Of a DNA stretch of 48,419 nucleotides, positions 17,792 through 33,316 are shown piece by piece. Origin of the DNA: Alphaproteobacteria bacterium (lineage in GTDB: Bacteria > Pseudomonadota > Alphaproteobacteria > UBA6615); contig CBDHEC010000016.1 in assembly GCA_965261975.1 (NCBI GenBank), positions 1-48,419 on the forward strand, given 5' to 3'. How positions within the stretch are numbered: position 1 is the first letter of the stretch; every line of letters begins with the position of its first letter. The notes beneath the pieces were generated by a model, which made no database searches, was not told the DNA's origin, and saw only the letters and a list, made by a program, of their open reading frames with translations. The translations under genes were made by a program, and so were the position numbers.

Positions 17792-18020
17792 CTAGAACGG
17801 GAAGATGATGTCGAGCACCTGCTGGCCGTAACGCGGCTGCTGGAGATCGGAAATCTGTCCGCGACCGCCATAAGACACGCGTGCCTCGGCAATCTGGTCG
17901 TAGGAAATCGTGTTGGTCGAGGTCACATCCTCGGGCCGGATGACCCCGGCGACCTGGAGTTGGCGGGCTTCGTAATTCACGCGAATTTCCTGTCGGCCGT
18001 AAATCGCCATGTTGCCGCTG
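17792..18020 (-). pseudogene. flgH: 5'-truncated flagellar L-ring protein (C-terminal ~75 aa)
   Basis: [65 protein letters not shown] is the FlgH C-terminus; similarity stops abruptly at about 18020. Confidence 0.88.
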
Positions 18021-18484
18021 CGCGTGCGCGGACCCTGCTGGGTGACTATGACCGGGCGCTGGCCTGGCTGGATGGTCTGGCGGGTGAAGAAGTGGATCTG
18101 CTGCGGGCGGAAATTCACTGGCGCTCGAAGGATTGGAAAGCCGCCTCGCGGGTCTTCGCCCGGCTGGCTGGCCCTTTGCCCGGACCTAATGAAACCCTCG
18201 ACCCCAAACACAGCCGCTACGTCATGAATCGCGCCGTGGCACTGGCGCTGGCGGGCGAGACCAACCGCCTGTCCGCGCTCGCGACGACCCACGGCGCGGC
18301 GATGGCAAATACCGCGTTCGGCGCGGACTTCAGAATCCTCACCGCGGTGGAAAGCGCACCGCGAGATTTCGCCGAAGTGCTCAAACGCGTGGCGAAGGTC
18401 GATGACTTCCAGGCCTTTATGGAAAGCTACCGGGCCCGGCTTGCGGGGACACCCGACGCGTCTTCGGCCACCACCGGGTCGTGA
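18020..18484 (+). pseudogene. 5'-truncated flagellar-cluster TPR-like protein (C-terminal ~150 aa)
   Basis: [40 protein letters not shown] resembles the end of the large TPR protein found near fliP in alphaproteobacterial clusters; it starts back-to-back with the flgH fragment and has no start codon. Confidence 0.65.
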
Positions 18485-18593
18485 TCGCTTGAGCAAGTCG
18501 GTGTCCGTCCCGGCGTGGGAGGGTGCATCTATTCCGGGCAACAGCGTAACGGTGTGGTCTATTCGCCAAACCGAGTTTGGTCCCGGCTAGTTG

Positions 18594-20222
18594 CTAACGC
18601 TGTTCGGTATGACGATCCGAGATTTGTTTTCCTGAAATCAGATAAAGCGCGCCCGCGCTAAATCCGGATTCGTGATCCACATCTGCTCCGACCAGAATGT
18701 CGTCGAAACCGTCTTTGTTCCAGTCGTCGCCGGCGTGCAGGCCGGTTCCCAGATAACTCAGGGGTGCACCGAGGACCTTGAGAATATTGGCGTTCGAAAC
18801 GGTGTACTCCGCGCCCTCCGATACATACTTGCCCGGCAGAACATAGAGCGACCCCGCATTGTCGTAAGTGTAATGGGCGACGGTTACGAAATCGGGCACG
18901 CCGTCACCATCGATATCCCCGGCTTTCAGACTGATATCGTAGCCGATACCGCTTTTTTGCCGGGTCGGAATATTGGCTTCCCCACGGAGAGTGGTGTGGA
19001 CGATGTTCCTGAAGTCCGTTTGGCCGCCTTCGCCCGCGGCGCGCCGCAACTTTGCGCCGCTGACCAAGTAGGACACACCAATCACTATGTCCTGATCGTT
19101 CTGGGCGTTCGGAAACGACATCCAGAAATCCTGGACCCCGTCTTGATCAAAATCCCCATAGGAGCCGATGGACAAATCGCGCGTGGAATGTGCATCAATG
19201 TCGATGGTGAGAATGGAATCGCCGCGTTTGAAATCGAAGAATACCAACCGAGAGTTTGAGACCAGTACAATTTCAGAACTGTCGGGAAGCGTGCTTGCCG
19301 GCACCATGGCAATGCCGTTGAGGTTTTCTGTCCCAACCGGCAAGTCGACGGGCTTCATGTCGGCAGAATTCTTCGGATCAACGCCTATGTGCAATTGCGC
19401 ATTGTTCAAATCGACAACGGTACCGTCGACAAAAAGTGCATTGTCGCTAAGATTCAAATCCGCACCGAGTTCATCGAGGCTCAATGTCTTCGAGCCTTGT
19501 ATCTTTTCGTCGAGCTCGATTATGCGCCCATTGAACAGCCAAGATTTTCCGTTGCTGCGGACACCTACATTGTCGATGACCGGGGCCTGACCGACCTTCT
19601 CCCAATCCGACGAATTTAGTTCAACGGCGCTATCTTCCAGGCTGACCTTCTCCTCGTTGACCCAGTTGTCTCCCGAGACAATCAGGTAATCGCGGCGGTC
19701 TTCGGAGCACCTCGTGTCGGCGGTTCCGGCGACAATGTCACTAATGCCATCGTCGTTTAGGTCGCCAACAACATCGAACACCCCCATCGTGACGCTATGG
19801 TATTCCCGGTCCAGGCCGTTCATGGCGGGCGGAAGCCATTTGGCCAACGTCACCTCGTCGATGGGCGTGAGTTCGCCAGATTGGTTGAAGTAGGCTTGTA
19901 ACCTGTCAGGGTTTCGACCGAACGCCGTGACCTGGAAAAACTCGAAAACGTCATCGAAATAGTCGTTGTAGTAGATAAATGTCTCGACCTCTTCCATGGA
20001 GACGGGCTCGCGCTCGGTCGTCCTGAACAAACGGAATCGATCCGTGGTAATCGCAATCGGGCGATCTTCGCAACGTTGGTCGTAGACCAAATTTTGCTGT
20101 TTCGCCGATCTGTTCAATATGTGCCCGGCGGAGTAACTCACCACCGTGATCGCGACGAGCAGCACGACAATCGCGATGCCCGCAATGAGGTAGGCTGAAC
20201 GTGGCAGGCTGGCGAGCTTCAT
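18594..20222 (-). CDS. FG-GAP/integrin-alpha repeat protein, N-terminally membrane anchored
   Basis: Ca-binding repeats GDLNDDGISDI, GDFDQDGVQDF, GDIDGDGVPDF, DDWNKDGFDDILVGA; AGSLYVL/AGALYLI; N-terminal TM. Confidence 0.8.
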   Translation of the reverse strand: MKLASLPRSAYLIAGIAIVVLLVAITVVSYSAGHILNRSAKQQNLVYDQRCEDRPIAITTDRFRLFRTTEREPVSMEEVETFIYYNDYFDDVFEFFQVTAFGRNPDRLQAYFNQSGELTPIDEVTLAKWLPPAMNGLDREYHSVTMGVFDVVGDLNDDGISDIVAGTADTRCSEDRRDYLIVSGDNWVNEEKVSLEDSAVELNSSDWEKVGQAPVIDNVGVRSNGKSWLFNGRIIELDEKIQGSKTLSLDELGADLNLSDNALFVDGTVVDLNNAQLHIGVDPKNSADMKPVDLPVGTENLNGIAMVPASTLPDSSEIVLVSNSRLVFFDFKRGDSILTIDIDAHSTRDLSIGSYGDFDQDGVQDFWMSFPNAQNDQDIVIGVSYLVSGAKLRRAAGEGGQTDFRNIVHTTLRGEANIPTRQKSGIGYDISLKAGDIDGDGVPDFVTVAHYTYDNAGSLYVLPGKYVSEGAEYTVSNANILKVLGAPLSYLGTGLHAGDDWNKDGFDDILVGADVDHESGFSAGALYLISGKQISDRHTEQR

Positions 20223-20510
20223 GATGCACCGTTCGGTCTTTCGTTGGCGTGTTCGTGAACGACTGCTCACCCGGGCATTTGGCGACAGTCATTCGCTGGC
20301 CGCAGCCAGGAAAAAATTCTGCATTCGTGCGTGAGAACGTGGCTAGCATATTGATTTCGGAAAGTTTTTCAAGCTTCCGCGAGGGAGGTGCGGCCGCCTG
20401 CTTGCCAGTCTTTGCTTGTGCCGGTTGGGGGCTTCGCCGCCATTGGTGCCGGGGATCGGCGCTATCGGAGGGACGCGCCTGGCCTCGGCGCTGGATGGCC
20501 TGAAGCCGCG

Positions 20511-21263
20511 CTAACCGAAGCTTTGCACCAGGCTCCCGGCCACCAGATACCAGCCGTCGACCAGCACGAAGAAGATCAGCTTGAACGGCAGGGAAATCAT
20601 GATCGGTGGCAGCATCATCATGCCCATCGACATCAGGACCGATGCGACCACCATGTCGATGATCACGAAGGGCACAAACAGCAGGAAGCCGATCTCAAAG
20701 GCGCGGCGCAGTTCCGAAATCATGAAGGCGGGGATAAGCGCACGCAGCGGCGTGTCCTCGATGCTGTCCACGCTTTCGAGTTTCGCCATGTCCATGAACA
20801 GCCGCAGATCCTGCTGGCGCACATGCTGCAGCATGAAGTCCTTGATCGGGGCCATGGTCCGCTCAAACGCCTCGCCCTCGGAGATTTCCTCGGCGATCAG
20901 AGGCTGAATGCCCTGGTCGTAGGCGGCCTCCAGCGTGGGCGCCATGACGAAGGCCGTGAGAAACAGCGCCAGGCTGACCAGCACCGTGTTCGGCGGGGTT
21001 TGCTGGGTGCCGATGGCCGAACGAAGGAAGGCGAGCACCACCACGATGCGGGTGAAACTGGTCACCATCACGATGATCGAGGGGGCCAGGGAAAGGACCG
21101 TCAGGAGGGCAATGAACTGCACGACCCGGGCGGTCGTGGAGCCGCCGTCGCCGAAGTCCAGATTGAAGCTCTGAGCCTCGGCGATGCCGATCGAGCCGAG
21201 AAATCCGAGCTCCAGGCCACCCAGCGCGATGGCGTAGCGGTTCAAATGGCGGAGCCTGTTCAT
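20511..21263 (-). CDS. fliP: Flagellar export gate protein FliP
   Basis: TSFTRIVVVL, QQTPPN, PAFMISELRRAFEIGF, LMSMGMMMLPP, LPFKLIFFVLVDGW. Confidence 0.95.
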   Translation of the reverse strand: MNRLRHLNRYAIALGGLELGFLGSIGIAEAQSFNLDFGDGGSTTARVVQFIALLTVLSLAPSIIVMVTSFTRIVVVLAFLRSAIGTQQTPPNTVLVSLALFLTAFVMAPTLEAAYDQGIQPLIAEEISEGEAFERTMAPIKDFMLQHVRQQDLRLFMDMAKLESVDSIEDTPLRALIPAFMISELRRAFEIGFLLFVPFVIIDMVVASVLMSMGMMMLPPIMISLPFKLIFFVLVDGWYLVAGSLVQSFG

Positions 21264-21592
21264 TGTGCGGCCCCGCTCTGGGGCGAGTGGGATGCATCGA
21301 GATGCGCCGCGAAGTCGGCACCTTCCGTACCGTTCGGCTCGATGCCGGTCTCGACCACGGTTTCGCTGGTGGGCCCCAGCAGCAGCAGATGTTCCACGCC
21401 GTCCCGGCGCACCAGCACGAGGCGGCGCTTGGCATCGATATGCGACGCCTCGACCACCCCGAGCCGGCCCTTGCCCGCGCCGAGGGTTACCCGGCCGGCA
21501 CCGTAGCGCCGCAAGATCCATGCGAGGGCCGCGATCAGGCCGAGAACGACGACCAGGGCGAGGACAAAACGCAATCCGGAGACCAGATCCAT
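21260..21592 (-). CDS. fliO: Flagellar biosynthesis protein FliO
   Basis: N-terminal TM, RLGVVE..IDAKRRLVLVRRDGVEHLLLLG; overlaps the fliP start. Confidence 0.88.
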   Translation of the reverse strand: MDLVSGLRFVLALVVVLGLIAALAWILRRYGAGRVTLGAGKGRLGVVEASHIDAKRRLVLVRRDGVEHLLLLGPTSETVVETGIEPNGTEGADFAAHLDASHSPQSGAAQ

Positions 21593-21627
21593 AACCAGTA
21601 AAACCTTTAAGGGTAAGTCCTTGGGGC

Positions 21628-21972
21628 CTAGGCGTCGTCGTCCGGGTTCGCATCCGGCACGGTGATCGCCGCGCTGTGGTCCGTTCGGGTGGTCGAGGCC
21701 TCAGCGCGGGCGAGCTGGGCCGCGACTTCGGTCTGTTCGGCCTCGATCTCGGCGCGAATCTCGTTGAGCTGGCTCAGGAGGGTCTCGAGCTGCTCGCGGA
21801 CCTTGGGGATGTCGGCGCGGGGCAGCTCGACGGCCGATTTGCACGTCTCGGCGACTTTCAGGTTGAAGCTATCGAGGTCGACTTCCTGTCCGTCGCGCAT
21901 GGCGGCGCGGATGGTATCGAGGGAGTTCGTGGCGGTATCGAGATCCTCGCGGACCGCTTCGAGCGTGGGCAT
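21628..21972 (-). CDS. Hypothetical helical protein upstream of fliO
   Basis: 114-aa ORF with host-like codon usage, GGAG RBS, co-oriented with fliOP. Confidence 0.7.
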   Translation of the reverse strand: MPTLEAVREDLDTATNSLDTIRAAMRDGQEVDLDSFNLKVAETCKSAVELPRADIPKVREQLETLLSQLNEIRAEIEAEQTEVAAQLARAEASTTRTDHSAAITVPDANPDDDA

Positions 21973-22170
21973 CGTTCAGGACTCCAGATCGTTTTGAGAA
22001 TGGTTGAGGCCAGTCCGCGCGCACGTCCGCGGCCTGCGCAGGCAGGTGGCGTTGTCGGATATGAAGGGGCGAAACGCCCGGTCGTGCGATGGGGGTGGCA
22101 GGCACGCGTGCTTCTCGTTGCGTAGTTAAGCGGCCTTCTGCCGCACGCCCAGAGGATCGCGGATTATGCT

Positions 22171-22186
22171 TAAGGAGAGGTTAAGG
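22171..22186 (+). repeat. attL core (overlaps a TTAA-N7-TTAA CtrA-type box at 22170-22184)
   Basis: TAAGGAGAGGTTAAGG, identical to 33301-33316. Confidence 0.88.
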
Positions 22187-22222
22187 GCTCTTGCGTCAAC
22201 GCACGACATTGGAAGTCAATAT

Positions 22223-22245
22223 AAGCCGGTTATCCGGCTTTTTTT
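22223..22245 (+). terminator. Terminator-like hairpin between attL and the integrase
   Basis: AAGCCGG-ttat-CCGGCTT-TTTTT. Confidence 0.6.
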
Positions 22246-22287
22246 ATTGAATCACGTCAACGCTAAGACTATCTAAGTCACTCAAAC

Positions 22288-22309
22288 GTAGTACGTGGGT
22301 AATACGTGG
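22288..22309 (+). repeat. Tandem 11-bp arm-type integrase binding sites (left)
   Basis: GTAGTACGTGG GTAATACGTGG; related tandem pair at 33222-33243. Confidence 0.65.
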
Positions 22310-22317
22310 AGGGACAT

Positions 22318-23499
22318 ATGAGGCTGGCGTTGACACCCAAAATCATCCGCGACCTGAAGCCGAACCCCGGTGGCGGCGACTTGATCGTGACAGATGCGCT
22401 GCTGCCCGGATTCGGTGTCCGCGTCTATCCGTCAGGCCGCATGGCGTACTGGTGGAACTCGCGGCGAGAAGGTCGGCAGACGATCGGCCCCACAGATGAG
22501 TACACCCTCGACGAGGCGCGAGACGAAGCGCGCGAGAACAAGAAGCTCTACCGCAAGGGCATCAATGTCAGAAAACATAAAGCAGCCGAGATTGAAGCCA
22601 ACCTCGCAGCAGAGCGCCGGAGCGCGCTGACGATCAGCGTGGCTCTGGATGAGTACTTCAAGCACCGCACCGATTGGTCAGCAGCCACACAGAAGAACTA
22701 CGCCATCTGCCGCCGCTACATCGAGCTGGAGTTCGGTGACCAGCACCCAGCTGACCTGACGGCACCAGACTGGATCGCGGTCTTGGCCGAGTATCAGGAA
22801 ACGCAAGGCATCGCCAACAATATGCTGGCCGTAGCCAAAGGCATGTTTAAGTGGTTGACCACAGCGTCCGCTCACGCGCGCGACGTCACCACCAACCCGG
22901 TGCGCGATGTTTCAGCCAAGAGACTACCCGCTCGGACAAACTACTTGCTGCCACAGGACCTGAGGCGACTGTATGACGTTGTCGCGGACGATCGGAATCA
23001 GTTCGAGGCCGCCGCAATCCAGATGCTCATCCTGACGGCACGCCGCCCCAGCGAGATTCGAAAACTAGCGTGGGCTGAGATCGACTTCGACAAGGCCACG
23101 ATCACTATTCCGAGCGAGCGAACGAAGACAGGGACAGAAGACACGTTCCCGCTCACGCCGAGGATGGTTGCAATTCTCAAGAACGTGCCGCAGCACAACG
23201 GGCCGCTCGTGTTCTCGCGCGACGGCGGCCACACGCCGATCAGTCTCAATCTGGCTCGTGTGCGTGAGCTGCTTGGTGAGGTGCCTGACTTCACAGGCGA
23301 GTGGCGCTTCCACGATTTCCGTACCAGCCTCGGCACCGCTCTGGACGATGCGGACGCGCCCTTCCACGAGAAGGAGATCATGCTGTCACATTCCCTTGGC
23401 GCGCTGGACCGCACCTACAGCAGGTCCAATCGGCTTGGGGTCAAGACGAAGTGGCTGAAATGGTGGGACAGCACGATTTTTGGTGCCAATCATGCTTAG
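22318..23499 (+). CDS. Tyrosine recombinase/integrase with N-terminal arm-binding domain
   Basis: DALLPGFGVRVYPSG arm domain; catalytic R (TARRPSEI), K (RTKT), HDFR, H (LSHS), Y (RTYSR) all present. Confidence 0.95.
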   Translation: MRLALTPKIIRDLKPNPGGGDLIVTDALLPGFGVRVYPSGRMAYWWNSRREGRQTIGPTDEYTLDEARDEARENKKLYRKGINVRKHKAAEIEANLAAERRSALTISVALDEYFKHRTDWSAATQKNYAICRRYIELEFGDQHPADLTAPDWIAVLAEYQETQGIANNMLAVAKGMFKWLTTASAHARDVTTNPVRDVSAKRLPARTNYLLPQDLRRLYDVVADDRNQFEAAAIQMLILTARRPSEIRKLAWAEIDFDKATITIPSERTKTGTEDTFPLTPRMVAILKNVPQHNGPLVFSRDGGHTPISLNLARVRELLGEVPDFTGEWRFHDFRTSLGTALDDADAPFHEKEIMLSHSLGALDRTYSRSNRLGVKTKWLKWWDSTIFGANHA

Positions 23500-23944
23500 T
23501 GATGATCGCAAGCGTGAGCTACTGGCGTTGTGGCATCTGGATGAAAGTGAGCCGATCCCGCAGACGGACCGCGAGTGGCAGCTTGTCGAATTTGGATTGT
23601 TGGCGGCCAGCGGCACGCCCATGCGCGCGAACAGCGCTCATTTCGACCGTCTGCGCGTTGCGCTTCTTGTAGCCCGCCGTATGCGCGACGAAGGCCTGTC
23701 AGCAGGTGCTTGCGTCACCCTGCTTAGCGGCGTGATCGCTCGGCTTGATGAGCCCGAAGACCTCATCGGCGCAGATACGATGGCTGCTTGGACAACACGA
23801 AAAGCGAAGGGGTATCCGACACCCAATCAGCGCGTCAAAGCTGACATAGATAGCCTTGGCTTCTCCAGAATCGATGCCGATATCGCCGAGTGGGAGTCGC
23901 TCATGGGGCGATCGATCGCAGACGGCCTTCCCGAGGGCTGGTAA
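23492..23944 (+). CDS. Hypothetical protein of the element
   Basis: Start overlaps the integrase stop; 150 aa; no recognised motif. Confidence 0.65.
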   Translation: MLSDDRKRELLALWHLDESEPIPQTDREWQLVEFGLLAASGTPMRANSAHFDRLRVALLVARRMRDEGLSAGACVTLLSGVIARLDEPEDLIGADTMAAWTTRKAKGYPTPNQRVKADIDSLGFSRIDADIAEWESLMGRSIADGLPEGW

Positions 23945-24026
23945 CTGTAAACATATCTGCAATCCTTACACTGCTGTTTAGTGATGATACCGGCAGTCTC
24001 CGTGCGATCAATTCACGGAGACGGAC

Positions 24027-24209
24027 ATGCAGGTTCAAGAACGCGAATGGCTGACGCCACAGGAGGCCGCCGAATACCTTGCCGTATCGACCGGCACGCT
24101 GCGGCAGTGGCGCTATCTCGACTACGGGCCGAAGCCAGCTAAGCGCAAGCGCATCATTAGATACAGCAAGGCCGTCATCGACCGTTGGCTTGAAGACGGT
24201 CGGGGCTGA
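24027..24209 (+). CDS. AlpA/excisionase-like HTH protein
   Basis: WLTPQEAAEYLAVSTGTLRQWR..GPKP..IIRYSKAVIDRWL (HTH_17/AlpA pattern). Confidence 0.88.
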   Translation: MQVQEREWLTPQEAAEYLAVSTGTLRQWRYLDYGPKPAKRKRIIRYSKAVIDRWLEDGRG

Positions 24210-24212
24210 GCA

Positions 24213-25895
24213 ATGCCTGCTGGGGACCTCGCTGATCTTGCCGTTGAACTCGCCGAAGAACTCGGCCCGGTGTTTCCGTGCGCCGGTGACAAGTCACCGC
24301 TGACCGCGCACGGATTCAAAGACGCTTCGAGCGACCCTGACGAAATTTATTCCGCGTTTTTTGCCGCACCGAACGTCGCGCTCATCGGCGTCGCCACCGG
24401 CGACATCATCGCGGTCGATATTGATCGGAAAAACGGGAAGGACGGTTTTCGGTGGCCCGTGTTGGCGGAACTCCCGCTGACCCGAACGCAATCAACGCCG
24501 TCCGGTGGCGAACACCGGCTATACCGGTTGCCGCCGGGACGCCGGTTGCGTGGTTCGTTGAGCGGTCTGTTCGAAGGCATCGATATTAAGGCCGATGGCG
24601 GCTACATCGCGACCGGGCCCGGCTATCGATGGATCAATGATGAGGACATCGCGACGCTGACCGAGGCGCACTGCGAATTGCTCTCGCGACCAGCAAGGCT
24701 GCCGCTTTCGCAACAGGGCGTATCCGCCGAGGACATCGCCGGTATCGACCACGGCAACTGGCACGAGCCGGTGTTGCGGCTGGTGGGCAAGCTAGTCGCG
24801 AAGGGCATCGACGATCAGACGATCTTTGCGCTGACGGACCGGTTCACTCTGTCCGGCCACACGGTCGCCCAGACGCGTCTAGAAGTCGCTGAGATGATTT
24901 GTGGCGCGCGCGCGAAGGGTTGGGCTCCCGAAGTGCCGGAGACGCGCCAGACGCCGTTCCTGAATCCGCTGGACGTGTTTCTCGCTGACCCACCGGACTG
25001 GCGCGTAGAGGGGCTACTACCCGAGCGTGGTGTCGGCATCCTTGTCGGCGGTGAGGGGTCGGGAAAAACCTTCGTTGCGATCGACCTGTGCATGGCCATC
25101 GCAAACGGCACAGCCTACGCCAACAACTACCCTACGTCTCGCGGCCGGGTACTGTACGCCGCCGCAGAAGATCGGCTCGGGGTCGGCGCCCGTATCGTTG
25201 CGCATCATCAATGGTCGGGCCTTGGCGTCGAGGACATTGTCCTTTGGCGCGGTATCTCACTCGCCGACACCGCCGACATCGAGTTTCTGGAACAGTGCGG
25301 CGACCGGTTCGATTTCGTCGTGGTCGATACGTTGAGCAAGGCGACGCCCGGTCTGGATGAAAACAGCAATACAGAAATGGCGGCGGCTATCGACCGAGCC
25401 TATCGCCTAAGCGCGATCTGGGATGCCTTCGTGCTGCTGGTGGCGCATAGCGGCAAGGAAGCTAGCAAGGGTATCCGAGGCGCGTCTTCGCTGACGGCGA
25501 ACGTCGATACCGTTTTGAAGTGCTCGCGCCCGGGGCGCGGCAAACAGGTCGGCGTGACGCTGGCCAAACAGAAGTCAGGACCCGAAGGCGTAGCGCTCAA
25601 TTTCTCGTTTGAACCGGTCGAGGTCACGAACACCCGCACGGGCGAAGTCACGCCATCGTTGGTGGTTAAGCCTGCGGGTCGATCCGCTTCTGATCTCTGC
25701 CGCCTCGTTCTAGAGGAAGGCGAGATGTCGGTTCAGGAGGTGTTTGAGCGTGTTACTCGGCACTCCGTGGACCCGTGTTACTCGGGCGTTACCAAGGCGG
25801 CCGTGAAGCAGGCTCTGCATCGCATGGTCCAGTCGGGTGAAGCGGTGAATAGCGGCGGAAACTATGCGCTTTCCGCGGGCGGAGAGGTCGAATGA
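24213..25895 (+). CDS. Bifunctional primase-polymerase fused to an AAA_25/RepA-type helicase
   Basis: PVFPC..HGFKDAS..IGVATG..VDID..TPSGGEH (Prim-Pol); Walker A GGEGSGKT, Walker B VVVDTL, VAHSGK, RGASSL. Confidence 0.9.
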   Translation: MPAGDLADLAVELAEELGPVFPCAGDKSPLTAHGFKDASSDPDEIYSAFFAAPNVALIGVATGDIIAVDIDRKNGKDGFRWPVLAELPLTRTQSTPSGGEHRLYRLPPGRRLRGSLSGLFEGIDIKADGGYIATGPGYRWINDEDIATLTEAHCELLSRPARLPLSQQGVSAEDIAGIDHGNWHEPVLRLVGKLVAKGIDDQTIFALTDRFTLSGHTVAQTRLEVAEMICGARAKGWAPEVPETRQTPFLNPLDVFLADPPDWRVEGLLPERGVGILVGGEGSGKTFVAIDLCMAIANGTAYANNYPTSRGRVLYAAAEDRLGVGARIVAHHQWSGLGVEDIVLWRGISLADTADIEFLEQCGDRFDFVVVDTLSKATPGLDENSNTEMAAAIDRAYRLSAIWDAFVLLVAHSGKEASKGIRGASSLTANVDTVLKCSRPGRGKQVGVTLAKQKSGPEGVALNFSFEPVEVTNTRTGEVTPSLVVKPAGRSASDLCRLVLEEGEMSVQEVFERVTRHSVDPCYSGVTKAAVKQALHRMVQSGEAVNSGGNYALSAGGEVE

Positions 25896-25922
25896 CCGAG
25901 CCTCTCTTGCTCAATATCAGGT

Positions 25923-25985
25923 GTTACTACCCCGTTACTGGACCAGCAGTAACACCCCCCCTGTCTATAGACAGGGGCGTTACTG
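25923..25985. other. Putative replication origin: GTTACT iterons and a 20-bp perfect palindrome
   Basis: GTTACT at 25923, 25934, 25979 and inverted at 25948; CCCCTGTCTATAGACAGGGG at 25958-25977; further GTTAC copies in the 3' end of the primase gene. Confidence 0.6.
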
Positions 25986-26000
25986 GCGGAGGGGTCGGTA

Positions 26001-26393
26001 ATGGATAAAGACCGCCGCCGCTATTCGGTAATACCCATCCGAGCAGTCGGGCTTGTGAAGAAGGGCGAACATTGGCGCGTACTCGCTGCGCTGTGTTCCT
26101 ACACAAGTCCGTCCGGCGTGGCTTACCCAAACCAAACTACGCTCGGCGAAATGTGTCAGATGGGCCAGCCGCATGTCTCGCGGGCCATCAAAGAGTTGCA
26201 CCGGCTGGGGCTGGTTCGCCTCCTTCGGCCGAAAGGCAAGAAGCACAAACGCGCCTTCATGCGAGGCAATCGTTACCAAGTCTTATACGAGCCGAACGCG
26301 CCGCTTCCTTCTCCACTTGAAACTGAGATTGCGTGGAACAGCCGCACAAACCGCTGGCCCTCGCATCAGGACCGGGGAGGTACGGAGGGGTGA
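26001..26393 (+). CDS. Winged helix (HTH_36-like) DNA-binding protein, phage-type
   Basis: RVLAALCSY..GVAYPNQTTLGEMCQMGQPHVSRAIKELHRLGLV..NRYQV. Confidence 0.8.
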   Translation: MDKDRRRYSVIPIRAVGLVKKGEHWRVLAALCSYTSPSGVAYPNQTTLGEMCQMGQPHVSRAIKELHRLGLVRLLRPKGKKHKRAFMRGNRYQVLYEPNAPLPSPLETEIAWNSRTNRWPSHQDRGGTEG

Positions 26394-26690
26394 CGCGCGC
26401 TCTCTCACATTCACCAACAACCGCCGAAGCGCCAGCCTGCTTCACTCGGCGGCTAGCCCAGTCGGAACGCGACCCCCAGCGCGTTTCGGCTGGGCGCTTA
26501 ATTATCGATTACCCTGTGTTACAGCAAAATCAATGCGTTGTCGGTCGTGTATGTGACTGCGTACTACAGGCGCACCACAGGATGGCCAGCAGCGCGCAGA
26601 AAACCGACCCATTGCCCCCCGCCCCCCCCTGCGTCTGTGTAGAGGAGGGTGGCGCGTGATTTTCCCAATTTTCGACGAAAGGAACCCTTC

Positions 26691-27341
26691 ATGACTGAAC
26701 GCATAACCACGCTCGAGCGCGAGATCGAGGAGGCTCAGGCTGAAATCAACGCCGCCTCTTTGCTTGCCGCGACTGAACAAAGCACTCCGGCCGTGAGGCT
26801 GAAGAAAGCCCGGGCCATACTCGAGCAAAAGGAACTGTTGAAGCTCGCCCGACTAGAATTGGTCGAGCTGCGCAAGCAGGCGCGGGCCGAAGCCGAGGAA
26901 GCGGCTTTCGCCGAACGCTGCGGCAATCGCGAAGCAATTTGCGAAGCCGTGGATGAGATCGAGAAGGAATCGGCGGCCCTAGATAAAGCGCTCGCTAAGG
27001 CCGCGAAGCATTACACGGCGCTCGAGGACGGAGTGCGCTCGGTGCTTTCGTATGGCGAGAATGCGGAAGGCTTCGATCTGCGGACCTTCAAAACAGGGCA
27101 GCCGCTTCAAGCGCCATACAACTTCACGATTCATTGCCTAGCCGAACGGTTCGGGTGGGGGCCGTCGCATCATTTAGAGATGTGGCCCCGCCCGCATGGT
27201 CGAGACGAGGGGAAGGCGAGAGCGTTCGCCGACTTCCGAGCCGCGCGAGATGATTGGCGCTACCCGCCAGACGCAGAGCCGGAAGGTCCCGTTGAATTTG
27301 AAGAAGTAAGCCCGGAGGAGATGAACAATGCAGTTCTCTGA
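26691..27341 (+). CDS. Coiled-coil hypothetical protein
   Basis: AAGGA RBS; Ala/Glu/Leu-rich heptad pattern over the first ~120 aa. Confidence 0.75.
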   Translation: MTERITTLEREIEEAQAEINAASLLAATEQSTPAVRLKKARAILEQKELLKLARLELVELRKQARAEAEEAAFAERCGNREAICEAVDEIEKESAALDKALAKAAKHYTALEDGVRSVLSYGENAEGFDLRTFKTGQPLQAPYNFTIHCLAERFGWGPSHHLEMWPRPHGRDEGKARAFADFRAARDDWRYPPDAEPEGPVEFEEVSPEEMNNAVL

Positions 27342-27840
27342 AATCGTATCGTCCCATAAGCCGCTGGAAAGCCTTGTGCGGCTTGCGCTGGCCACCAAGG
27401 GCGTCACCGTAACCGACGGTACTGTGGACAGGTACGCGTCACTCCTCGAGGCGGCCATCCTCGCGGATGACGGCGAAAGCCTTGAGGGGAACGTTTGGCA
27501 GAGTTTCATCGACGGTATCGATGGATCGTCTAAGTACGAAGCGGCGATCCGGTCCATTGGCGAGACACTCGGAGCGTCGTCGAGCGAGATCGCCCAGTTC
27601 ATGGCCGTCAGCAACGCTACGATCGATGCGCTCACCGGAACGCCGATTGAGGAAGCAGAGCGTTTCCTTGCCGATGACTTTGACGCCATCACGCCGACCG
27701 CGGCGGAACCTTACTCTCACCTCGATGACCAGAGCAGGGTCGTCGCTATGGAAGTGGACCGCGCACTCGGTGCGCCAGATCCATCGCGTCCCGAGCCGTC
27801 ACATCTTGCAGAAAGCGATGGGGGCGATGATGCGGAATGA
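27328..27840 (+). CDS. Acidic hypothetical protein
   Basis: GGAGGAG RBS; overlaps the upstream gene; very D/E-rich. Confidence 0.72.
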   Translation: MQFSEIVSSHKPLESLVRLALATKGVTVTDGTVDRYASLLEAAILADDGESLEGNVWQSFIDGIDGSSKYEAAIRSIGETLGASSSEIAQFMAVSNATIDALTGTPIEEAERFLADDFDAITPTAAEPYSHLDDQSRVVAMEVDRALGAPDPSRPEPSHLAESDGGDDAE

Positions 27841-28057
27841 AATGCTCAGGTGGTCGTTCACGTTAAAGGTCGGTGTACTTGAACCCTATACGGACCTCAC
27901 CGCACAGCTGCAGGGCGCGGACGAGTTCCCGTCATTACAGGACGAAGTGTTAGAGGCTGTTGAAGAGGTCATCCAGCGCAGGGCAGGCACCATGAAGGGT
28001 CTAGCGCAGGTGCGGGTGCTGGATGTGGAGCGAGCGAACGTGAAGGCTCTTGTATGA
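27827..28057 (+). CDS. Small hypothetical protein
   Basis: MMRNEMLRWSFTLKV..; overlaps the previous stop; last gene of the co-oriented backbone. Confidence 0.6.
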   Translation: MMRNEMLRWSFTLKVGVLEPYTDLTAQLQGADEFPSLQDEVLEAVEEVIQRRAGTMKGLAQVRVLDVERANVKALV

Positions 28058-28084
28058 GACGGGCTACTGCGTGGCGCAGCTGGA

Positions 28085-28591
28085 TTACCCTTGGCTGGGG
28101 AGCTCCCCAGTTTGGAGAAACCGAACAGCGTTATCGGTGTCTTCAATCAATACTGCGCCCTTTTCGGTTGCCTTCTCTATCTTCGACCAGCCCGGCGAAG
28201 ACCCAACAAGTAAAACTGATACTTTTTTCGTAACATTTGTCCGAACAATGAATTTGCCGCTCTCCTCAGCGAGTGCTTTTAGGTAATCCTTGTCCTCATC
28301 GCTGTAGCCGGTAATGCAAATCTCCGTTTTAGAGCCGTCATTTTGCTCTACCCGAAATCTGGGCGGCCTAGGCGGCATAATTGTGTAGTTCTTTTGCTGT
28401 TCGCTGGCCTCTCTTATGGCGGCATCTAGGTTTTCGTGATACGCCACAATCCTACTTTTGTTGAACTGCTTCCACTTGTTGGCAACTAGATCTCTACCTT
28501 CAACGTGCTTGTCGGTCTCATTGGTTACCTCAATGTGATAACCTTTGACCTCGTTCTTGCTGTTTTTATAAGTGATGTAGATTTCAGCCAT
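28085..28591 (-). CDS. WYL-like N-terminal domain plus BRCT domain protein
   Basis: ITYKNSKNEV..VEGRD..KQFNKSRI (WYL-like); EICITGYS..VRTNVTKKVSVLLVGSSPGWSKIEKATEKGAVLI (BRCT). Confidence 0.75.
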   Translation of the reverse strand: MAEIYITYKNSKNEVKGYHIEVTNETDKHVEGRDLVANKWKQFNKSRIVAYHENLDAAIREASEQQKNYTIMPPRPPRFRVEQNDGSKTEICITGYSDEDKDYLKALAEESGKFIVRTNVTKKVSVLLVGSSPGWSKIEKATEKGAVLIEDTDNAVRFLQTGELPSQG

Positions 28592-28772
28592 CGCTTACAC
28601 TCCCTCGATGCGCGCTCTTAGACAGACATTTCGCCCTCGAGGCGATCATCAATGCGGTGATAGAGGTGCGCGTTCTCATCGGAAAAGCCTACAGGCGCGG
28701 GCAAAACGCTGGCAACCGTTTCGCCCAAGCTTCACCAGCCGATACAAAAACAAAAATTGAAGGTAATCCAAG

Positions 28773-29225
28773 ATGTTTGGTTTATTCGCGTCTAAACGGA
28801 CGAAATTTGCAAAGAAGGGGAAAAATCTCTTTGACGTATATATCCCCTCTTTGAAAGGCATGACCTCATCCGAGATAGGCTTCGTCCTCGCGCAAGCGGT
28901 GCAAATCAAAGATGCATCCACGATGCACGGTTCCAAGGAAGATTTGGTCACCGTGTTTCATGACCCAATGTTGTTGCCTGAAACTGAGGCGTTTGAAACG
29001 TTGCGCCTTTGGGAGCGTCATATGCTGTCCCTAAATGGATCTTTAGAAGGAAGGGCGAAGGCGGCGTCTCTATCCATTTGGTATTTATCTGTTATTGCAT
29101 GCCAAATCCCTGAATTGAGGGTTCGCGGCCGAGAGATGTGGGCGGAGTTACAAAGAGGATATGAAGAGGCAAGTTTTAACCCCGACGAAGACGCTGTAAT
29201 CGGTTTGGAACCTGACTATCAGTAA
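28773..29225 (+). CDS. Hypothetical cargo protein
   Basis: 150-aa low-GC ORF with AAGG RBS. Confidence 0.7.
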   Translation: MFGLFASKRTKFAKKGKNLFDVYIPSLKGMTSSEIGFVLAQAVQIKDASTMHGSKEDLVTVFHDPMLLPETEAFETLRLWERHMLSLNGSLEGRAKAASLSIWYLSVIACQIPELRVRGREMWAELQRGYEEASFNPDEDAVIGLEPDYQ

Positions 29226-29449
29226 ACCCTTATCATGACCCGGGCGGGATCAAAACTGGTTCTGAGAAGGACAGGCAGGCGCTTTTCTCTTTGAAAGAGC
29301 TTGTTGTTTGGAACCAAACCCGCCTACCTCATTCGAATATGCGTCGGCCCATTTAAAATCGGCTGGATGTGGGTTTTTTTATGCTTCTATACCGCACCAC
29401 TATCCGTTGATAACCGTCGCCTGACGGTGATCAAGATACTTGATACTTG

Positions 29450-30217
29450 TTATCCTTGATCTATAAGTAGGCCGAATATTTTCATATCGCGTTCAAAATA
29501 ACTTTGAAGTTCGCGTAACTTCTCTGAATTTTTCTCCGTCTCACTCAAGTATTCTGCAGCCAGCGCCGCCATGCCCTCCTCGTCGCCATCTTCAGGCATA
29601 GGTCTATCAGCTAATGCCCCACTGACGGCAGAAATATAGATGGGATTATCGCCAACATCTTTTTGAAAATGGGCTAATGAAATTAGACTAATAGTGAGGT
29701 TTTCTTTCAGTTTTTTATCACCTAACTTGGCCGCAGTGATAAGACAAGATGCGATCTTTTCTTTTGGGTGTGGCAATAGCTTTTCGTCATAAAACGCGAT
29801 AGAGCTATCCTTATGCTTCATCATACAAAACCCGAAATCCGATATGACCTCTTCAGTCGTGGCGATCGCATCAGCACCGATATTTCTCAGGGCTAGTCCC
29901 CTCGGGGTAAATAAAAATCCGACAATGAATCCAGTGACGACCCATACCCATCCACTGATATTGAATTCGAATACTTTTATGTGATATCCCGTATATTCAA
30001 TCCAAATTATTACGGCAGTTAAACCAATTAATGCAAAAATTAATGTTGGAAAAATATCTCTTTTATTACCATAAAAAACGGAGCGTAACGTTGAGCCCAA
30101 GCAAACTGCAACGAGTGGATTTAGGAGACCCGACCACCCAAGGCTAGAAAAGAATGTATCAAATACAGGAATACTTGTAAAAAATACGATAACAACATAC
30201 ACCATGATAATAAACAT
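29450..30217 (-). CDS. Cargo membrane protein (about 4 N-terminal TM plus soluble C-terminal domain)
   Basis: AGGAG RBS, very low GC, hydrophobic first ~105 aa. Confidence 0.75.
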   Translation of the reverse strand: MFIIMVYVVIVFFTSIPVFDTFFSSLGWSGLLNPLVAVCLGSTLRSVFYGNKRDIFPTLIFALIGLTAVIIWIEYTGYHIKVFEFNISGWVWVVTGFIVGFLFTPRGLALRNIGADAIATTEEVISDFGFCMMKHKDSSIAFYDEKLLPHPKEKIASCLITAAKLGDKKLKENLTISLISLAHFQKDVGDNPIYISAVSGALADRPMPEDGDEEGMAALAAEYLSETEKNSEKLRELQSYFERDMKIFGLLIDQG

Positions 30218-30364
30218 GAATGACGCTCCTTAGCTCGAGTGCTTAGATTCTAACGTATGTCTGAAAAAAATTCTTGGAATCCGAATTTAATCTTCTTTCG
30301 GAAGCCGTTTGACGGCTACCTAACGTAGACACGCGAACCAGAATTGTGGATGAACCTCCAATCA

Positions 30365-30589
30365 TCAGGAATCACCCGAGTTCGGCACCTGCTTCTCAGC
30401 GACGTTACCGCAGACAGAGCAGGTGAACCGCTGCTGGATGTAGTCAACGTCGGGCCTCCCATCTTCCAGCCAGTCAGCAGGAATGACTTCCTCCCACTGG
30501 CCGCATGGTTGGCAATGGAGGGCAAGGGTCATGCCGGAACCGGCAAGGCCGGAGATGGTGCTTATGGTGATGGGGGTTTGGTCGAGCAT
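30365..30589 (-). CDS. Small zinc-binding protein (CxxC...CxxC)
   Basis: LHCQPCG and FTCSVCG pairs in 74 aa. Confidence 0.6.
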   Translation of the reverse strand: MLDQTPITISTISGLAGSGMTLALHCQPCGQWEEVIPADWLEDGRPDVDYIQQRFTCSVCGNVAEKQVPNSGDS

Positions 30590-30717
30590 GGGGTCAGTTT
30601 GGCGCCCCTGAGCGAGGCAGGCTACGTCGCCTAAAGGGTAATAGTGGATATCCTTCGAAGAACACGGAGTCCTCGCGAGGGTTTTTTATTCCAAATAGAT
30701 AAAGGGTATTCAGGTCA

Positions 30718-30987
30718 TTAAATCAGAAAATTTAACCCAAAACCTATTGCAGCAGAAATTCCACAGGTTACCACTCCAGAGATAAATAAACTCAATAAAA
30801 AATTCTTAAAAACATTGGTTTCCGATGCTGAGGAAAGGCGTCTCAAATGTTCTATTCTAAATAAATAATAACCCGGAACATAGATTAATGCGGTTATAAT
30901 AAGAAGAGGCCAATAATCTTGGTAGAAGCCAATAAAACCGCTACCGATTACGGATATCCATAATATTAATGCACCAACTGACCTCAT
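30718..30987 (-). CDS. Small cargo membrane protein (about 3 TM)
   Basis: Low GC, hydrophobic, GGGGAA RBS before MRSVG. Confidence 0.65.
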   Translation of the reverse strand: MRSVGALILWISVIGSGFIGFYQDYWPLLIITALIYVPGYYLFRIEHLRRLSSASETNVFKNFLLSLFISGVVTCGISAAIGFGLNFLI

Positions 30988-31009
30988 AAGATTCCCCCGA
31001 AAAAACCAG

Positions 31010-31303
31010 TTACCCCGTTGCCACATACAGCACTAACCCCGCCATTACGAAAAAGCCCCCTAGCAATAGGCTTGCGAGATTAACCCAAAGCCGATGCAAG
31101 CGGGATTTCATTAATCCTTTCCGCCTGAGCCATCTAGCCATGACGAAACGGAAAATTAATGCCAACAGTACCCAGACCGTTACTGCGGGGGCTGTGTCAA
31201 TAAATTCTAGGGCTTTATTAATGAGCGCGGGATCCTCACCGCCGACTTCAACAAGGTCTTTGCCGATGACGGATGTGTCGGCTTTTCGAAAAAAGAAGGA
31301 CAT
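31010..31303 (-). CDS. Small cargo membrane protein (2 TM)
   Basis: Two hydrophobic segments; start uncertain. Confidence 0.55.
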   Translation of the reverse strand: MSFFFRKADTSVIGKDLVEVGGEDPALINKALEFIDTAPAVTVWVLLALIFRFVMARWLRRKGLMKSRLHRLWVNLASLLLGGFFVMAGLVLYVATG

Positions 31304-31330
31304 TCGGTCAGCGTTTACAAGTTGTAACTA

Positions 31331-31368
31331 ACGCCCACGGCGCGCGCGCCGGATACGCAGGCCGAGCT
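31331..31368 (+). repeat. 38-bp direct repeat, copy 1
   Basis: ACGCCCACGGCGCGCGCGCCGGATACGCAGGCCGAGCT; 36/38 identical to 31904-31941. Confidence 0.9.
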
Positions 31369-31429
31369 GTCCCGGGGTGCACAGGGCGACGAGCTTCAGG
31401 TGTAGGGCGCGAACTGACATCGACTGGCG

Positions 31430-31759
31430 TTACTTCTTGAACTCGATCTCCAGAGCCACGACATCAACATCGCCGATGTTGGTCGCATTGTGCTCGACAG
31501 GCGCGATCACCATGCTTGACGTGCCATGCACATAGTCCACCTGCTTTGAAGAGCCGTCAGGGAAGTCGAAATGCAATTTCCCAGCCGATAGCTGGATCGG
31601 CATGTAGTTCATTTCGTGCCGATGCCACCCAGTCTGCTCACCGGGCTTGAATACCCAGTGGGTGACGATCATCTGATCGTCCTCCATCAGCACCTTATGC
31701 GTGGCGATAGGTCTGTCCGCAGCTTCGTCGGCTGTCTTCTCGGCTAACTTTGTGGACAT
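31430..31759 (-). CDS. Cupin-domain protein (cargo)
   Basis: WVFKPGEQTGWHRHEMNY, VEHNATN. Confidence 0.85.
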   Translation of the reverse strand: MSTKLAEKTADEAADRPIATHKVLMEDDQMIVTHWVFKPGEQTGWHRHEMNYMPIQLSAGKLHFDFPDGSSKQVDYVHGTSSMVIAPVEHNATNIGDVDVVALEIEFKK

Positions 31760-31903
31760 GATGCTTCTCCATTTCTAAAGCGCCAAAATTGTTATCAAAG
31801 AAGACGGAACCTGCAAGGTCCGACATAGTGCTGTCGGAAATGAGTGGCTTGGGAGTCATGCGGCCATCCAAGCGGCCAGACACCCGAAGAGTATCTAACG
31901 ACC

Positions 31904-31941
31904 ACGCCCACGGCGCGCGTTCCGGATACGCAGGCCGAGCT
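31904..31941 (+). repeat. 38-bp direct repeat, copy 2
   Basis: ACGCCCACGGCGCGCGTTCCGGATACGCAGGCCGAGCT. Confidence 0.9.
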
Positions 31942-32179
31942 TGATCACCTTACCGGCGATGCGGGCGGTCCGAACGGCGAAACGAGCGGCTTTGAGAGGT
32001 GGCATGGGGCTTTTCCCGAAAAACTAATCGAGATTTTGAATTTCACAATTAGCGTAATCAACGACCTCAGACGCGAAGTTAGCCGCATCAGAGGCATACT
32101 GTTTGAGTTTCCTGACATAGTCGTCAACGTCAGATTGGTATTGTCTGATATCGGATTGCTAAGCGTGCGCTGTGAACGC

Positions 32180-32764
32180 TTATGGCAATGCGGTTGCGCG
32201 GGCAAGTTGCTCCTCGATGGCGCTCACAACCTTTTCAGAGGTCGGCGAGGTTACGGATGAAAACCACCCGACCAATTTGCCGTCTGGTGCAATCAGGTAT
32301 TTGTGGAAGTTCCAACGCGGCTTCGACAGAGGGCTAAAATGGGTGGCGGCCCACTGGTAAAAGGGATGCGCCTTTTCGCCCCGCACATGAACCTTCTCAG
32401 TCATTGGGAAATCGATCCCGTAATTCACTTCACAGAATTGCTTGATCTCGTCCTCTGTGCCCGGCTCCTGTCCACCGAAGTCGTTCGAGGGCACAGCCAA
32501 GACCACGAGTCCCTTGTCGCGGTAGCGCGCCCACAGATCAGCAAGTGCGGAATATTGTGACGTAAAACCGCATTGGGATGCCGAGTTCACTACGAGCACG
32601 GCTTTGCCTGCGAATTGAGCGAGAGGGAGTGGATCACCCTCGATTGCTATAAAGCTGAAATCGTGGGCGCTAGGCACGCCGCCCTCCGCCGCCTGAACAG
32701 GGCCGGAAAACAACGCACACAACGCTATGACTAAAATTTTGCACGGTGAAACGGGGGCTCGCAT
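32180..32764 (-). CDS. Glutathione peroxidase family protein (Cys type, signal peptide)
   Basis: VVNSASQCGFT, PSNDFGGQEPG, PRWNFHKYLI. Confidence 0.92.
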   Translation of the reverse strand: MRAPVSPCKILVIALCALFSGPVQAAEGGVPSAHDFSFIAIEGDPLPLAQFAGKAVLVVNSASQCGFTSQYSALADLWARYRDKGLVVLAVPSNDFGGQEPGTEDEIKQFCEVNYGIDFPMTEKVHVRGEKAHPFYQWAATHFSPLSKPRWNFHKYLIAPDGKLVGWFSSVTSPTSEKVVSAIEEQLARATALP

Positions 32765-33221
32765 AAGTTTCGCTTCAAATCACACTAGATAAATTTGATA
32801 CGGTCCGATTTAGGCGCTGGATTACGAGCGCGCATCAATTGCCCAATCACGACGCTGGACAACGATCACCTGAAGTGGGAGCCGTTCATCCCATTTCAGG
32901 AGAAGGTGTCGTCAGCAATCGACGGCGCACTCGTTGAGCTGGTGCCTCAGGGGCGCGGGATCGTCTCGATCGAGTTGTTAGCCGAGGACAAGTTCGAGGT
33001 GGGGTCATGAGCAAGCGTCGCCCACTGCACCTTGCTGACTGATCCGCGCCCGTGCAATTCGTCGTTCTGGCGAATTGTTGAGTCAGTTTGATGCTAGGGG
33101 TGGAGATCGCAGCAAAAGGGTCGGTGCCGACCCTTTTGGTCAACGCCATGTCGCCGAACAAGCGGGGATGTCCAAGGATCAGAAAAAGTAGGGGCCCCAT
33201 ACTTTTTCTTTTGTTCTCACA

Positions 33222-33243
33222 GTAGTCCGCGTGTAGTACGCGC
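33222..33243 (+). repeat. Tandem 11-bp arm-type sites (right)
   Basis: GTAGTCCGCGT GTAGTACGCGC, similar to the left pair. Confidence 0.6.
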
Positions 33244-33272
33244 ATCATTTAAGAAAATATTTTTTGTAACAA

Positions 33273-33285
33273 TATCAATTATTTA
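33273..33285 (+). promoter_or_regulatory. IHF consensus site between the arm sites and the attR core
   Basis: TATCAA-TTAT-TTA matches WATCAANNNNTTR in an AT-rich tract. Confidence 0.6.
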
Positions 33286-33300
33286 TGAAGAAAAATATCG

Positions 33301-33316
33301 TAAGGAGAGGTTAAGG
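33301..33316 (+). repeat. attR core
   Basis: TAAGGAGAGGTTAAGG; GC returns to host level immediately after. Confidence 0.88.

Follow-up and report, generated by a model that had tools for sequence, protein, structure and literature searches.

The stretch of DNA analysed here, referred to below as the window, comprises positions 1-48,419 of contig CBDHEC010000016.1 in assembly GCA_965261975.1, from an alphaproteobacterium of the UBA6615 lineage. It carries an 11.1-kb element with an arm-binding tyrosine integrase, inserted at a 16-bp identity block centred on TTAA-N7-TTAA, and this attachment (att) site and its host counterpart are the subject of our analysis. The present assembly is called G000; other G-numbers denote relative genomes, L-numbers denote loci, and X-numbers denote sequencing runs. 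The junctions, the integrase gene (int), and the host genes on either side are listed by position and strand (ORF, open reading frame; aa, amino acids).

22170..22184, no strand: TTAA-GGAGAGG-TTAA dyad at attL, the putative att core, with two TTAA core sites and a 7-bp overlap
22171..22186, no strand: 16-bp direct repeat TAAGGAGAGGTTAAGG, attL copy; the site is empty in G010, G011, and G004
22187..33300, plus strand: 11.1-kb integrative element, absent at this exact place from G010, G011, and G004
22318..23499, plus strand: tyrosine integrase, 393 aa, Arm-DNA-bind_3 and Phage_integrase domains, phrog_1, with conserved R242/R243, E246, H332, R335, and Y367
33301..33316, no strand: 16-bp direct repeat, attR copy; adding base 33300 gives a degenerate dyad, GTAA-GGAGAGG-TTAA
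33340..33585, minus strand: csrA, the host gene across attB, its stop codon 23 bp from the core
21628..21972, minus strand: 114-aa coiled-coil ORF, the first gene downstream of the dyad, with a homologue at the same place in G022
21260-21592, minus strand: FliO-like ORF (TIGR03500 at 47 bits, under the cut-off of 55)
20511..21653, minus strand: FliP (TIGR01103 at 299 bits; the domain covers residues 183-375 of the maximal ORF)

The attL dyad reads cTTAAGGAGAGGTTAAg (22170-22184) within the wider stretch gcTTAAGGAGAGGTTAAGGgctc (22168-22190), and this sequence, TTAAGGAGAGGTTAA, is the sole exact TTAA-N7-TTAA across the window; shuffled windows held a mean of 0.08 such motifs, with at least one in 8 of 100 shuffles. 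A second copy, GTAAGGAGAGGTTAA, lies at 33300-33314 and forms attR. The string TAAGGAGAGGTTAA is found exactly twice in the window, the second time at 33301-33314 and preceded by G instead of T, and two copies were obtained in 0/100 shuffles. Aligned by eye, the identity between the junctions covers 16 bp (TAAGGAGAGGTTAAGG, 22171-22186 and 33301-33316), and attB has the 5-bp inverted repeat CTTAA/TTAAG on either side of 7 bp. An initial annotation, made from the letters alone, had read attL as TTAA-GGAGAGG-TTAA and attR as GTAA-GGAGAGG-TTAA, and had placed the dyad about 200 bp upstream of minus-strand hypothetical-fliO-fliP genes; both readings are confirmed, and the distance from the dyad to the ATG of the minus-strand 114-aa ORF (21972) measures 198 bp. 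Its claim that the dyad and not a tRNA is the att site agrees with the absence of any tRNA or tmRNA gene (ARAGORN) and of any Rfam family at gathering score from the whole window, and with the empty sites seen in relatives.

Three genomes of the same genus (G010, G011, and G004) display the uninterrupted site: the left flank up to 22186 directly joins the right flank from 33301 with a single shared core, which proves the boundaries of the element. The empty site of G010 reads GATTATGCTTAAGGAGAGGTTAAGGATGTTTT, in which the attL left side runs straight into the attR right side; attB in the host is therefore a perfect dyad, and attP would be GTAA-GGAGAGG-TTAA. On one side of this TTAA-N7-TTAA lies csrA, on the other the 114-aa ORF, fliO, and fliP. 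Direct repeats at both ends that correspond to one copy in the empty site of relatives are a mark of site-specific integrative elements, and no other copies of the element arms were found in G000. The integrase matches PF00589 (E = 8.7e-14) and PF13356 (E = 1.7e-10), and its residues R242/R243, H332, R335, and Y367 are invariant or at least 90% conserved across 11 integrase sequences, so that both the arm-binding and the catalytic R-H-R-Y features of a lambda/P4-type tyrosine recombinase are present.

Homologues of the integrase were drawn from a protein database, species genomes, metagenomes, and IMG/VR, the last of which yielded no integrase above 43% identity. Close relatives, defined by a tblastn match of at least 50% identity, comprise nine loci:

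L024: exact dyad, spacer CAAAGCG
L025 (the same as G048): exact dyad, spacer TAATTCG
L103 and L104, two views of a single element: exact dyad, spacer CGTCCTG
L106: exact dyad, spacer CGCACCG
L108: exact dyad, spacer CGCCCCG
L105: TTAG-N7-TTAA, 155 bp upstream
L107: just 68 bp of upstream sequence, too short to score
L166: a 49-residue fragment match, no dyad

The initial annotation had proposed that the closest integrase homologues be mapped to see whether they fall in TTAA-N7-TTAA motifs, and every testable one does: an exact dyad stands upstream of int in 6/9 close loci (L024, L025, L103, L104, L106, and L108), 148-152 bp from the estimated int start, with G000 as the seventh (148 bp), and L105 has its near match. 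Among homologues below 50% identity, an exact dyad within 400 bp upstream was found in 0/139 (a further 11 of the 150 were too short). Together with GGAGAGG of G000, six spacers are represented in the clade, and a G precedes the right TTAA in 7/7 junctions. No tRNA gene was detected in the nine close loci, and one was detected at 1/60 distant loci. Candidates for attR in other elements were rejected: the 11-mer repeat at L103/L104 is on the wrong side and has a chance of about 16% at random (our own estimate, not computed), and the lone second core match in the genome of L024 lies within an alkA-like coding region, with 1 match also returned by a backwards control.

Pairs of elements in this clade differ in spacer and host flank and share their arms. 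In the remnant of G048, int is cut off after about 116 residues; between core and int, G000 and G048 match at 125/134 positions, while 5/7 spacer positions differ and the host flanks are unrelated (29/65). L106 and L108 have identical arms (135/135), spacers that differ at 1 position, and different left flanks (36/61). Arms that are 93-100% identical next to different spacers fit the lambda-like geometry that had been suggested for the site, with inverted core sites around a 7-bp overlap. The two TTAA half-sites would then be inverted core-type sites and the 7-bp spacer the overlap for strand exchange, from which it follows that the clade would need TTAA, 7 bp, and T(T/G)AA in its host. Since the spacer must match between element and host, each variant would be confined to hosts with its spacer, and a lineage could move to a new dyad by a change of spacer alone.

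The empty site for the G048 remnant is present in G021 as TTAATAATTCGTTAAT (in context GACGTTAATAATTCGTTAATACAAG); of the five TTAA-N7-TTAA motifs genome-wide in G021, two are both targets of this element lineage. In four members of the same genus that are more distant, homology ended short of the matching position and no dyad was found there. For the L024 host, homology in five relatives extends to the end of the dyad; the empty site in its relatives reads TTAA-N7-TGAA, which makes the element the source of the right TTAA at that attL. The verified attB sites (n=3) thus comprise two perfect dyads and one with a single mismatch. As far as these comparisons reach, it appears a sound statement that the host supplies TTAA, 7 bp, and T(T/G)AA, and the element G-TTAA on its own side. 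By bringing the right half-site (G-TTAA), the element would always leave a perfect dyad at attL beside the left host DNA. The initial annotation held that integration preserves the perfect box at attL; a perfect dyad does stand there, and what does not carry over to the L024 lineage is its preservation, the right TTAA being the element's. We consider the geometry of the att site and its clade-wide specificity to be well supported by these alignments.

The dyad is also conserved where no element is inserted. We searched 46 genomes of the order (which here equals the family) with the stretch of about 90 nt that ends at the core, and found it in 18/46, G000 counted. Short matches that do not reach the dyad, in G043 (query positions 8-33) and G013 (51-72), were left out, and the 16 aligned sequences come from 6 genera. 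Half-site positions read TTAA in 127/128 cells, the sole exception being CTAA in G048, against spacer columns that are just 38-94% identical over the same genomes; the conservation of the box in relatives, which the initial annotation had named as a check, is accordingly found. Host features next to the dyad share in this conservation:

22163..22168, minus strand: CATAAT, similar to a -10 hexamer and 1 bp away from the dyad; C, A, T, A, and A invariant in 16/16 genomes, last T in 15/16
22096..22169, minus strand: leader-like host element, conserved, on the downstream side of the dyad; contains the hairpin GCGGC-AGAAG-GCCGC (22130-22144)

In G022, 19 nt separate the dyad from the downstream ATG of a small FlhB-C-like gene (PF01312, E = 3.4e-11), which is followed by the homologue of the 114-aa ORF, fliO, and fliP. 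In flagellated relatives the dyad thus stands at the head of an operon for flagellar export. No sigma-70 promoter was found by scan in G000 or G010, nor any -35 hexamer; this would fit an activator-dependent promoter and proves nothing. A sigma-54 promoter in TGGCAGGCACGCGTGCTT was considered and dropped, as by eye its spacing is one off and it is unconserved in G003 and G021.

TTAA-N7-TTAA is the CtrA motif across Alphaproteobacteria according to the cited part of PMC9437464. With the NCBIfam CtrA model NF045991 (cut-off 350 bits), CtrA was found in 14/46 family genomes, among them G004, G010, and G011, while G056 and G057 have truncated matches at short contigs; CtrA above the cut-off and FlhA co-occur in the family. 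CtrA is present in 8/16 of the genomes that keep the dyad (in G056 by the partial match only). Dyads cluster in the ctrA/flagellar regions of CtrA-positive relatives: in G010, 3 of 12 dyads lie in one 79-kb stretch, and in G019, 4 of 27 are found at 548-585 kb, near ctrA (523 kb), flhA (528 kb), and fliP (581 kb). Exact dyads are rare in these GC-rich genomes, at 4-33 per genome in the 11 counted. In G000, TTAA pairs are found 10 times at spacing 7 and 0-4 times at each other spacing from 0 to 20 (Poisson tail ~2e-4).

In the G000 assembly, which is 94.6% complete, ctrA was not found (best NF045991 score 130 bits; tblastn of the G004 CtrA at best 34% identity), and its four OmpR-type regulators are PhoB-, OmpR- or other-like. 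FlhA, FliF, and flagellin were likewise not found. The contig lacks the 38-kb block of G010 (C5:2364738-2402834) that holds ctrA and flhA, with a junction at 12765-12774, and two smaller G010 blocks near flgH, of ~4 kb and ~10 kb, are also missing (17681-17684 and ~18005-18017). An 839-aa PAS histidine kinase (37422-39941, plus strand) has CckA as its best match (616 bits, cut-off 1000; model positions 61-770 of 868), and a kinase of the CtrA pathway thus seems to be retained though ctrA was not found. With fliO/P, fliE/Q/R, and flhB left over, the flagellar system of G000 looks like one in decay. The motif sequence and the combination of conserved half-sites with a free spacer, both features of CtrA sites, are present at the dyad; a host-encoded CtrA is not found in G000. 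Given that ctrA, flhA, fliF, and flagellin were not found, the earlier suggestions that CtrA occupancy could gate excision and that the element could alter the expression of flagellar export genes are unsupported in this host.

The best explanation overall, and in our judgement a probable one on comparative grounds, is that the dyad is an integrase core site with an exchangeable spacer, and that the host dyad is of the CtrA-box type in relatives and a relic landing pad here. In flagellated, CtrA-encoding relatives it may act as a conserved, promoter-proximal protein-binding site of this type, heading the flhB-like/orf/fliO/fliP operon; in the present host the CtrA/flagellum system is apparently gone, and the dyad would then be what remains of it. 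The CtrA identity of the host site in flagellated ancestors is plausible, and on the alignments we lean towards it. The initial annotation's proposal that the integrase uses a transcription-factor operator as attB is borne out in part: a dyad of the CtrA type, conserved before a flagellar operon in CtrA-positive relatives, is indeed the target in G000, and the proposal does not extend to every insertion of the clade or to every genome that keeps the dyad.

A number of observations weigh against this explanation. The integrase has no need of a working operator: the dyad used by the G048 element, as seen in G021, lies inside an ORF that G048 reads through, in a CtrA-less host. Seven relatives (the five in which homology reaches the end of the L024 dyad and two more) have TTAA-N7-TGAA at the L024-type empty site. 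Half of the genomes that keep the dyad (8/16) are without CtrA and FlhA, and the dyad is perfect in 7 of those 8. The other nine dyads of G000 adjoin mostly metabolic genes, and no excess of dyads over a reversed control pattern was seen in 10 genomes, CtrA-positive genomes being no higher than CtrA-negative ones. Full CtrA motifs begin near the -35 of activated promoters, e.g. at -39 or -32, in the cited parts of PMC4287350 and PMC11264516; if CATAAT is the -10, the dyad would reach from about -28 to -14 and lie closer to the start than the -39/-32 of Caulobacter given in the cited part of PMC4287350. The attR is readable for the G000 element alone, which bears on the extent of the identity block in other elements. 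Finally, one public run contains 0.85 of the sampled words, and its contigs leave 22060-22310, including attL, uncovered; no joint linking 22186 to 33301 was found in that run, other joints being short-sided or elsewhere, and it is mute on excision.

Some of these points would be accommodated more easily if the dyad were just the recognition sequence of the integrase, with the host copy kept for some purpose other than CtrA (as a promoter or leader element, or for a different regulator that persists in CtrA-less genomes) and the likeness to a CtrA box being the coincidence of a short AT-rich palindrome. This is possible, though we think it unlikely. The dyad and the ~90 nt beside it are 80-87% identical in genomes without CtrA and FlhA, in G021 the dyad and block stand between unrelated genes, and the invariant CATAAT adjoins the dyad with no -35 hexamer found; the lack of a genome-wide excess and the related insertion at a coding-region dyad also speak for it. 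Coincidence accounts poorly for the perfect dyad before flagellar genes in all 8 CtrA-positive genomes that carry the conserved host block and for the clustering of dyads in flagellar regions of CtrA-positive relatives, and we know of no other regulator with this dyad. At the other extreme stands the full model of the initial annotation applied to this host, i.e. a working CtrA operator whose occupancy gates integration and excision, with altered flagellar export and phage susceptibility. Its appeal is that the motif matches, is conserved, and lies in front of fliO/fliP, that the CckA-like kinase gene at 37422-39941 remains (616 bits, below 1000), and that ctrA could be unassembled in an assembly 94.6% complete; we nevertheless hold it to be very unlikely, as there is no CtrA above 130 of the 350 bits or 34% tblastn identity, as FlhA, FliF, and flagellin were not found, and as the contig runs contiguously without the 38-kb ctrA/flhA block.

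What is conserved could also be a transcript or a protein. The target may be an RNA gene or leader, so that the element inserts at, and replaces, one end of a small conserved transcript: the conserved block of ~90-110 nt stops exactly at the core, G010 has a terminator-like hairpin ~105 nt downstream on the minus strand, and the element supplies a strong plus-strand terminator 40 nt past the core. RNAalifold on the 16 sequences identified a lone conserved helix, the 5-bp hairpin GYGGC-AGAAG-GCCGC, with G-U-compatible changes that favour a minus-strand transcript (alifold energy -8.7 vs -2.8), which is in line with such a target; a structured sRNA (small RNA) was rejected, as this one small helix was all that was recovered. 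Rfam and tRNA matches are lacking, the core is on the promoter side of the minus strand and thus outside the transcript, and the other attB sites of the clade share the dyad and not a conserved leader-like element, which together make an RNA target highly improbable. Conservation of a small ORF from the ATG at 22167 (ATG CTT AAG GAG AGG TTA AGG...) in place of a DNA site has next to no likelihood. The ATG and M-L-K-(E/K)-x-L-(R/K) are kept in most relatives, and some spacer changes are synonymous or conservative (both by eye); beyond codon 7, however, sequence and length are unrelated among relatives, the frame runs antisense into csrA with no Shine-Dalgarno at a usable distance, and conservation of the TTA and CTT codons extends to the nucleotide level, in a genome with 63% GC.

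The reading of the dyad as an integrase core site with an exchangeable spacer is complemented by candidate features in the arms of the element:

22288..22295, plus strand: GTAGTACG, candidate arm-type integrase site of the P' arm, ~100 bp from the attL core
33233..33240, plus strand: GTAGTACG, candidate arm-type site of the P arm, ~60 bp from the attR core
26560..26567, minus strand: GTAGTACG, third copy, internal
22223..22247, plus strand: intrinsic-terminator-like hairpin (22223-22240) and T run between core and int, 40 nt beyond the core

The octamer has 3 copies in the window, all within the element (shuffles: mean 0.31, with 0/100 reaching 3). The terminator-like hairpin is kept in the G048 remnant and would, to judge from its position, block outside transcription from entering int.

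Lambda att sites consist of a core, C-O-C', with a 7-bp overlap, and of arm-type sites in P and P'. The present element resembles them in its arm-binding and catalytic domains, the inverted CTTAA/TTAAG around 7 bp, an identity block that covers the spacer, and an octamer in both arms that may serve the same role; it differs in that the half-sites are fixed and very short (TTAA), and unrelated host loci share the dyad alone, with a spacer that varies by element. P4-like integrases integrate at the 3' ends of tRNA genes, and P4-type satellites have a primase/helicase replication module. Such integrases (Arm-DNA-bind_3 / DUF4102) share the domain pair, int adjoining attL and reading inward, and a primase/helicase module with this element, unlike which they have an RNA gene as target: no tRNA, tmRNA, or Rfam RNA is found in the window, and no tRNA gene at the 9 close loci. 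By testable features this is a lambda/P4-type integrative element whose target class differs. CTX phage integrates at dif, and dif-integrating elements (CTX, Jorvik-like) likewise target a short host site that is conserved and dyad-symmetric, and not a gene end. They rely on host XerCD, whereas this element has its own integrase and its dyad is not dif-like by eye; a dif-like att site was rejected here, the resemblance to dif being confined to one arm. For Jorvik, attP and attB resemble dif in the cited part of PMC10589892. CtrA sites of flagellar and cell-cycle promoters, as described in the cited parts of PMC9437464 and PMC4287350, have the identical motif with half-sites kept and spacer free, as does the dyad before the flagellar export operon of CtrA-positive relatives; here the motif is a recombination site, and the host is without ctrA. 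Published phage CtrA sites serve transcriptional control and not as attB in the cited parts of PMC9437464 and PMC10589892, and no CtrA-type dyad used as attB was found in the portions of the literature searched, supplements aside. The att-site specificity described here appears real from the sequence comparisons and was not found in that literature.

Most site-specific elements with such integrases have been described at tRNA or other gene ends, and this clade appears to read a bare 4+7+4 dyad. This offers a simple account of few conserved landing pads, host specificity via the spacer, and access to new loci by changing 7 bp, and the compact attB/attP pair is directly testable. The integrase lineage might further have adopted the CtrA consensus operator as its core site, so that Int and CtrA~P would be rivals for a single 15-bp site in flagellated, CtrA-positive hosts, with integration and excision tied to cell-cycle or motility state and a perfect operator rebuilt by the element via its distal half-site. 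We regard this as doubtful. If true, operator rebuilding would mirror the rebuilding of the tRNA 3' end by tRNA-targeting elements, and competition between CtrA and integrase would link a mobile element to host physiology in a new way; in this genome the CtrA/flagellar part is moot.

The remaining contents of the element include a replication module:

24213-25895, inside the element: primase-polymerase fused to an AAA_25 helicase-like domain
26001-26393, inside the element: winged-helix protein, replication-initiator-like

A BRCT-domain protein follows the winged-helix gene, and a low-GC cargo at 28-33 kb (44-55% GC, ~62% outside) encodes unknown ORFs and a glutathione peroxidase. No virion genes were recognized among the element ORFs and no excisionase was recognized in the element, in which a 154-aa ORF (23480-23944) has no family match. 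A csrA-like paralogue within the element, suspected from repeat D7, was discounted as the translation shows none. The cargo contains a 38-nt direct repeat, 95% identical (31331-31368 and 31904-31941), and each copy encodes part of the C-terminus of a short minus-strand frame that finishes in ...LGLRIR.ARRGR. A 29-nt near-perfect palindrome, GAAAAAGTAGGGGCCCCATACTTTTTC (33181-33209), is found close to the element's right end, inside a predicted 120-aa ORF (32886-33248) that may be miscalled.

Contigs from seawater and estuary metagenomes (runs X1, X2, and X5) are 90-99% like the element parts 22436-26791 and 30180-33567 and hardly match the host flanks, which suggests that related elements are present in other backgrounds. 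In one X5 contig, the glutathione-peroxidase region is connected with a csrA-like stretch by 341 different letters that replace the attR region.

The left flank, read on the minus strand, runs in the order 114-aa ORF, FliO-like, FliP, an FG-GAP protein, and partial FlgH; the right flank has csrA (minus strand) and then fliE, fliQ, fliR, and flhB. The 558-aa FG-GAP-repeat ORF (18594-20270, minus strand) lies in a lower-GC stretch (53%) and has no counterpart at that place in G010, and the FlgH ORF (17792-18541, minus strand) has a family match limited to its C-terminal 75 residues. A one-mismatch dyad, TTAACAAACGGTAAA, is found on the minus strand at 33675-33689, about 90 bp upstream of the csrA start. 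In genus g11 (L210, L212, L213, L010, L214, and L215), a GC-rich hairpin with compensatory changes (GGCGGCCCCGAGGGACCGCC, GGCGGCCGAAGCCGCC) directly follows the host dyad and is itself followed by TTAAC; the hairpin probably terminates the minus-strand gene that lies upstream.

The gene with the coding-region dyad of G048/G021 encodes a 285-aa protein of no known family, and in four genomes of the same genus (L226:1348 in G052, L228 in G050, L227 in G046, and L230 in G047) another TTAA-N7-TTAA lies ~80 nt before its start. At the place of L024:2849-2863, seven relatives of that alphaproteobacterial host (L272-L278) have a conserved CATGC-TTAA-N7-TGAA whose spacer varies; a conserved gene of ~65 aa, belonging to no known family, begins ~55 nt downstream. 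The G000 attB and a second G010 dyad (C5:2391878) have the same ATGC-TTAA flank.

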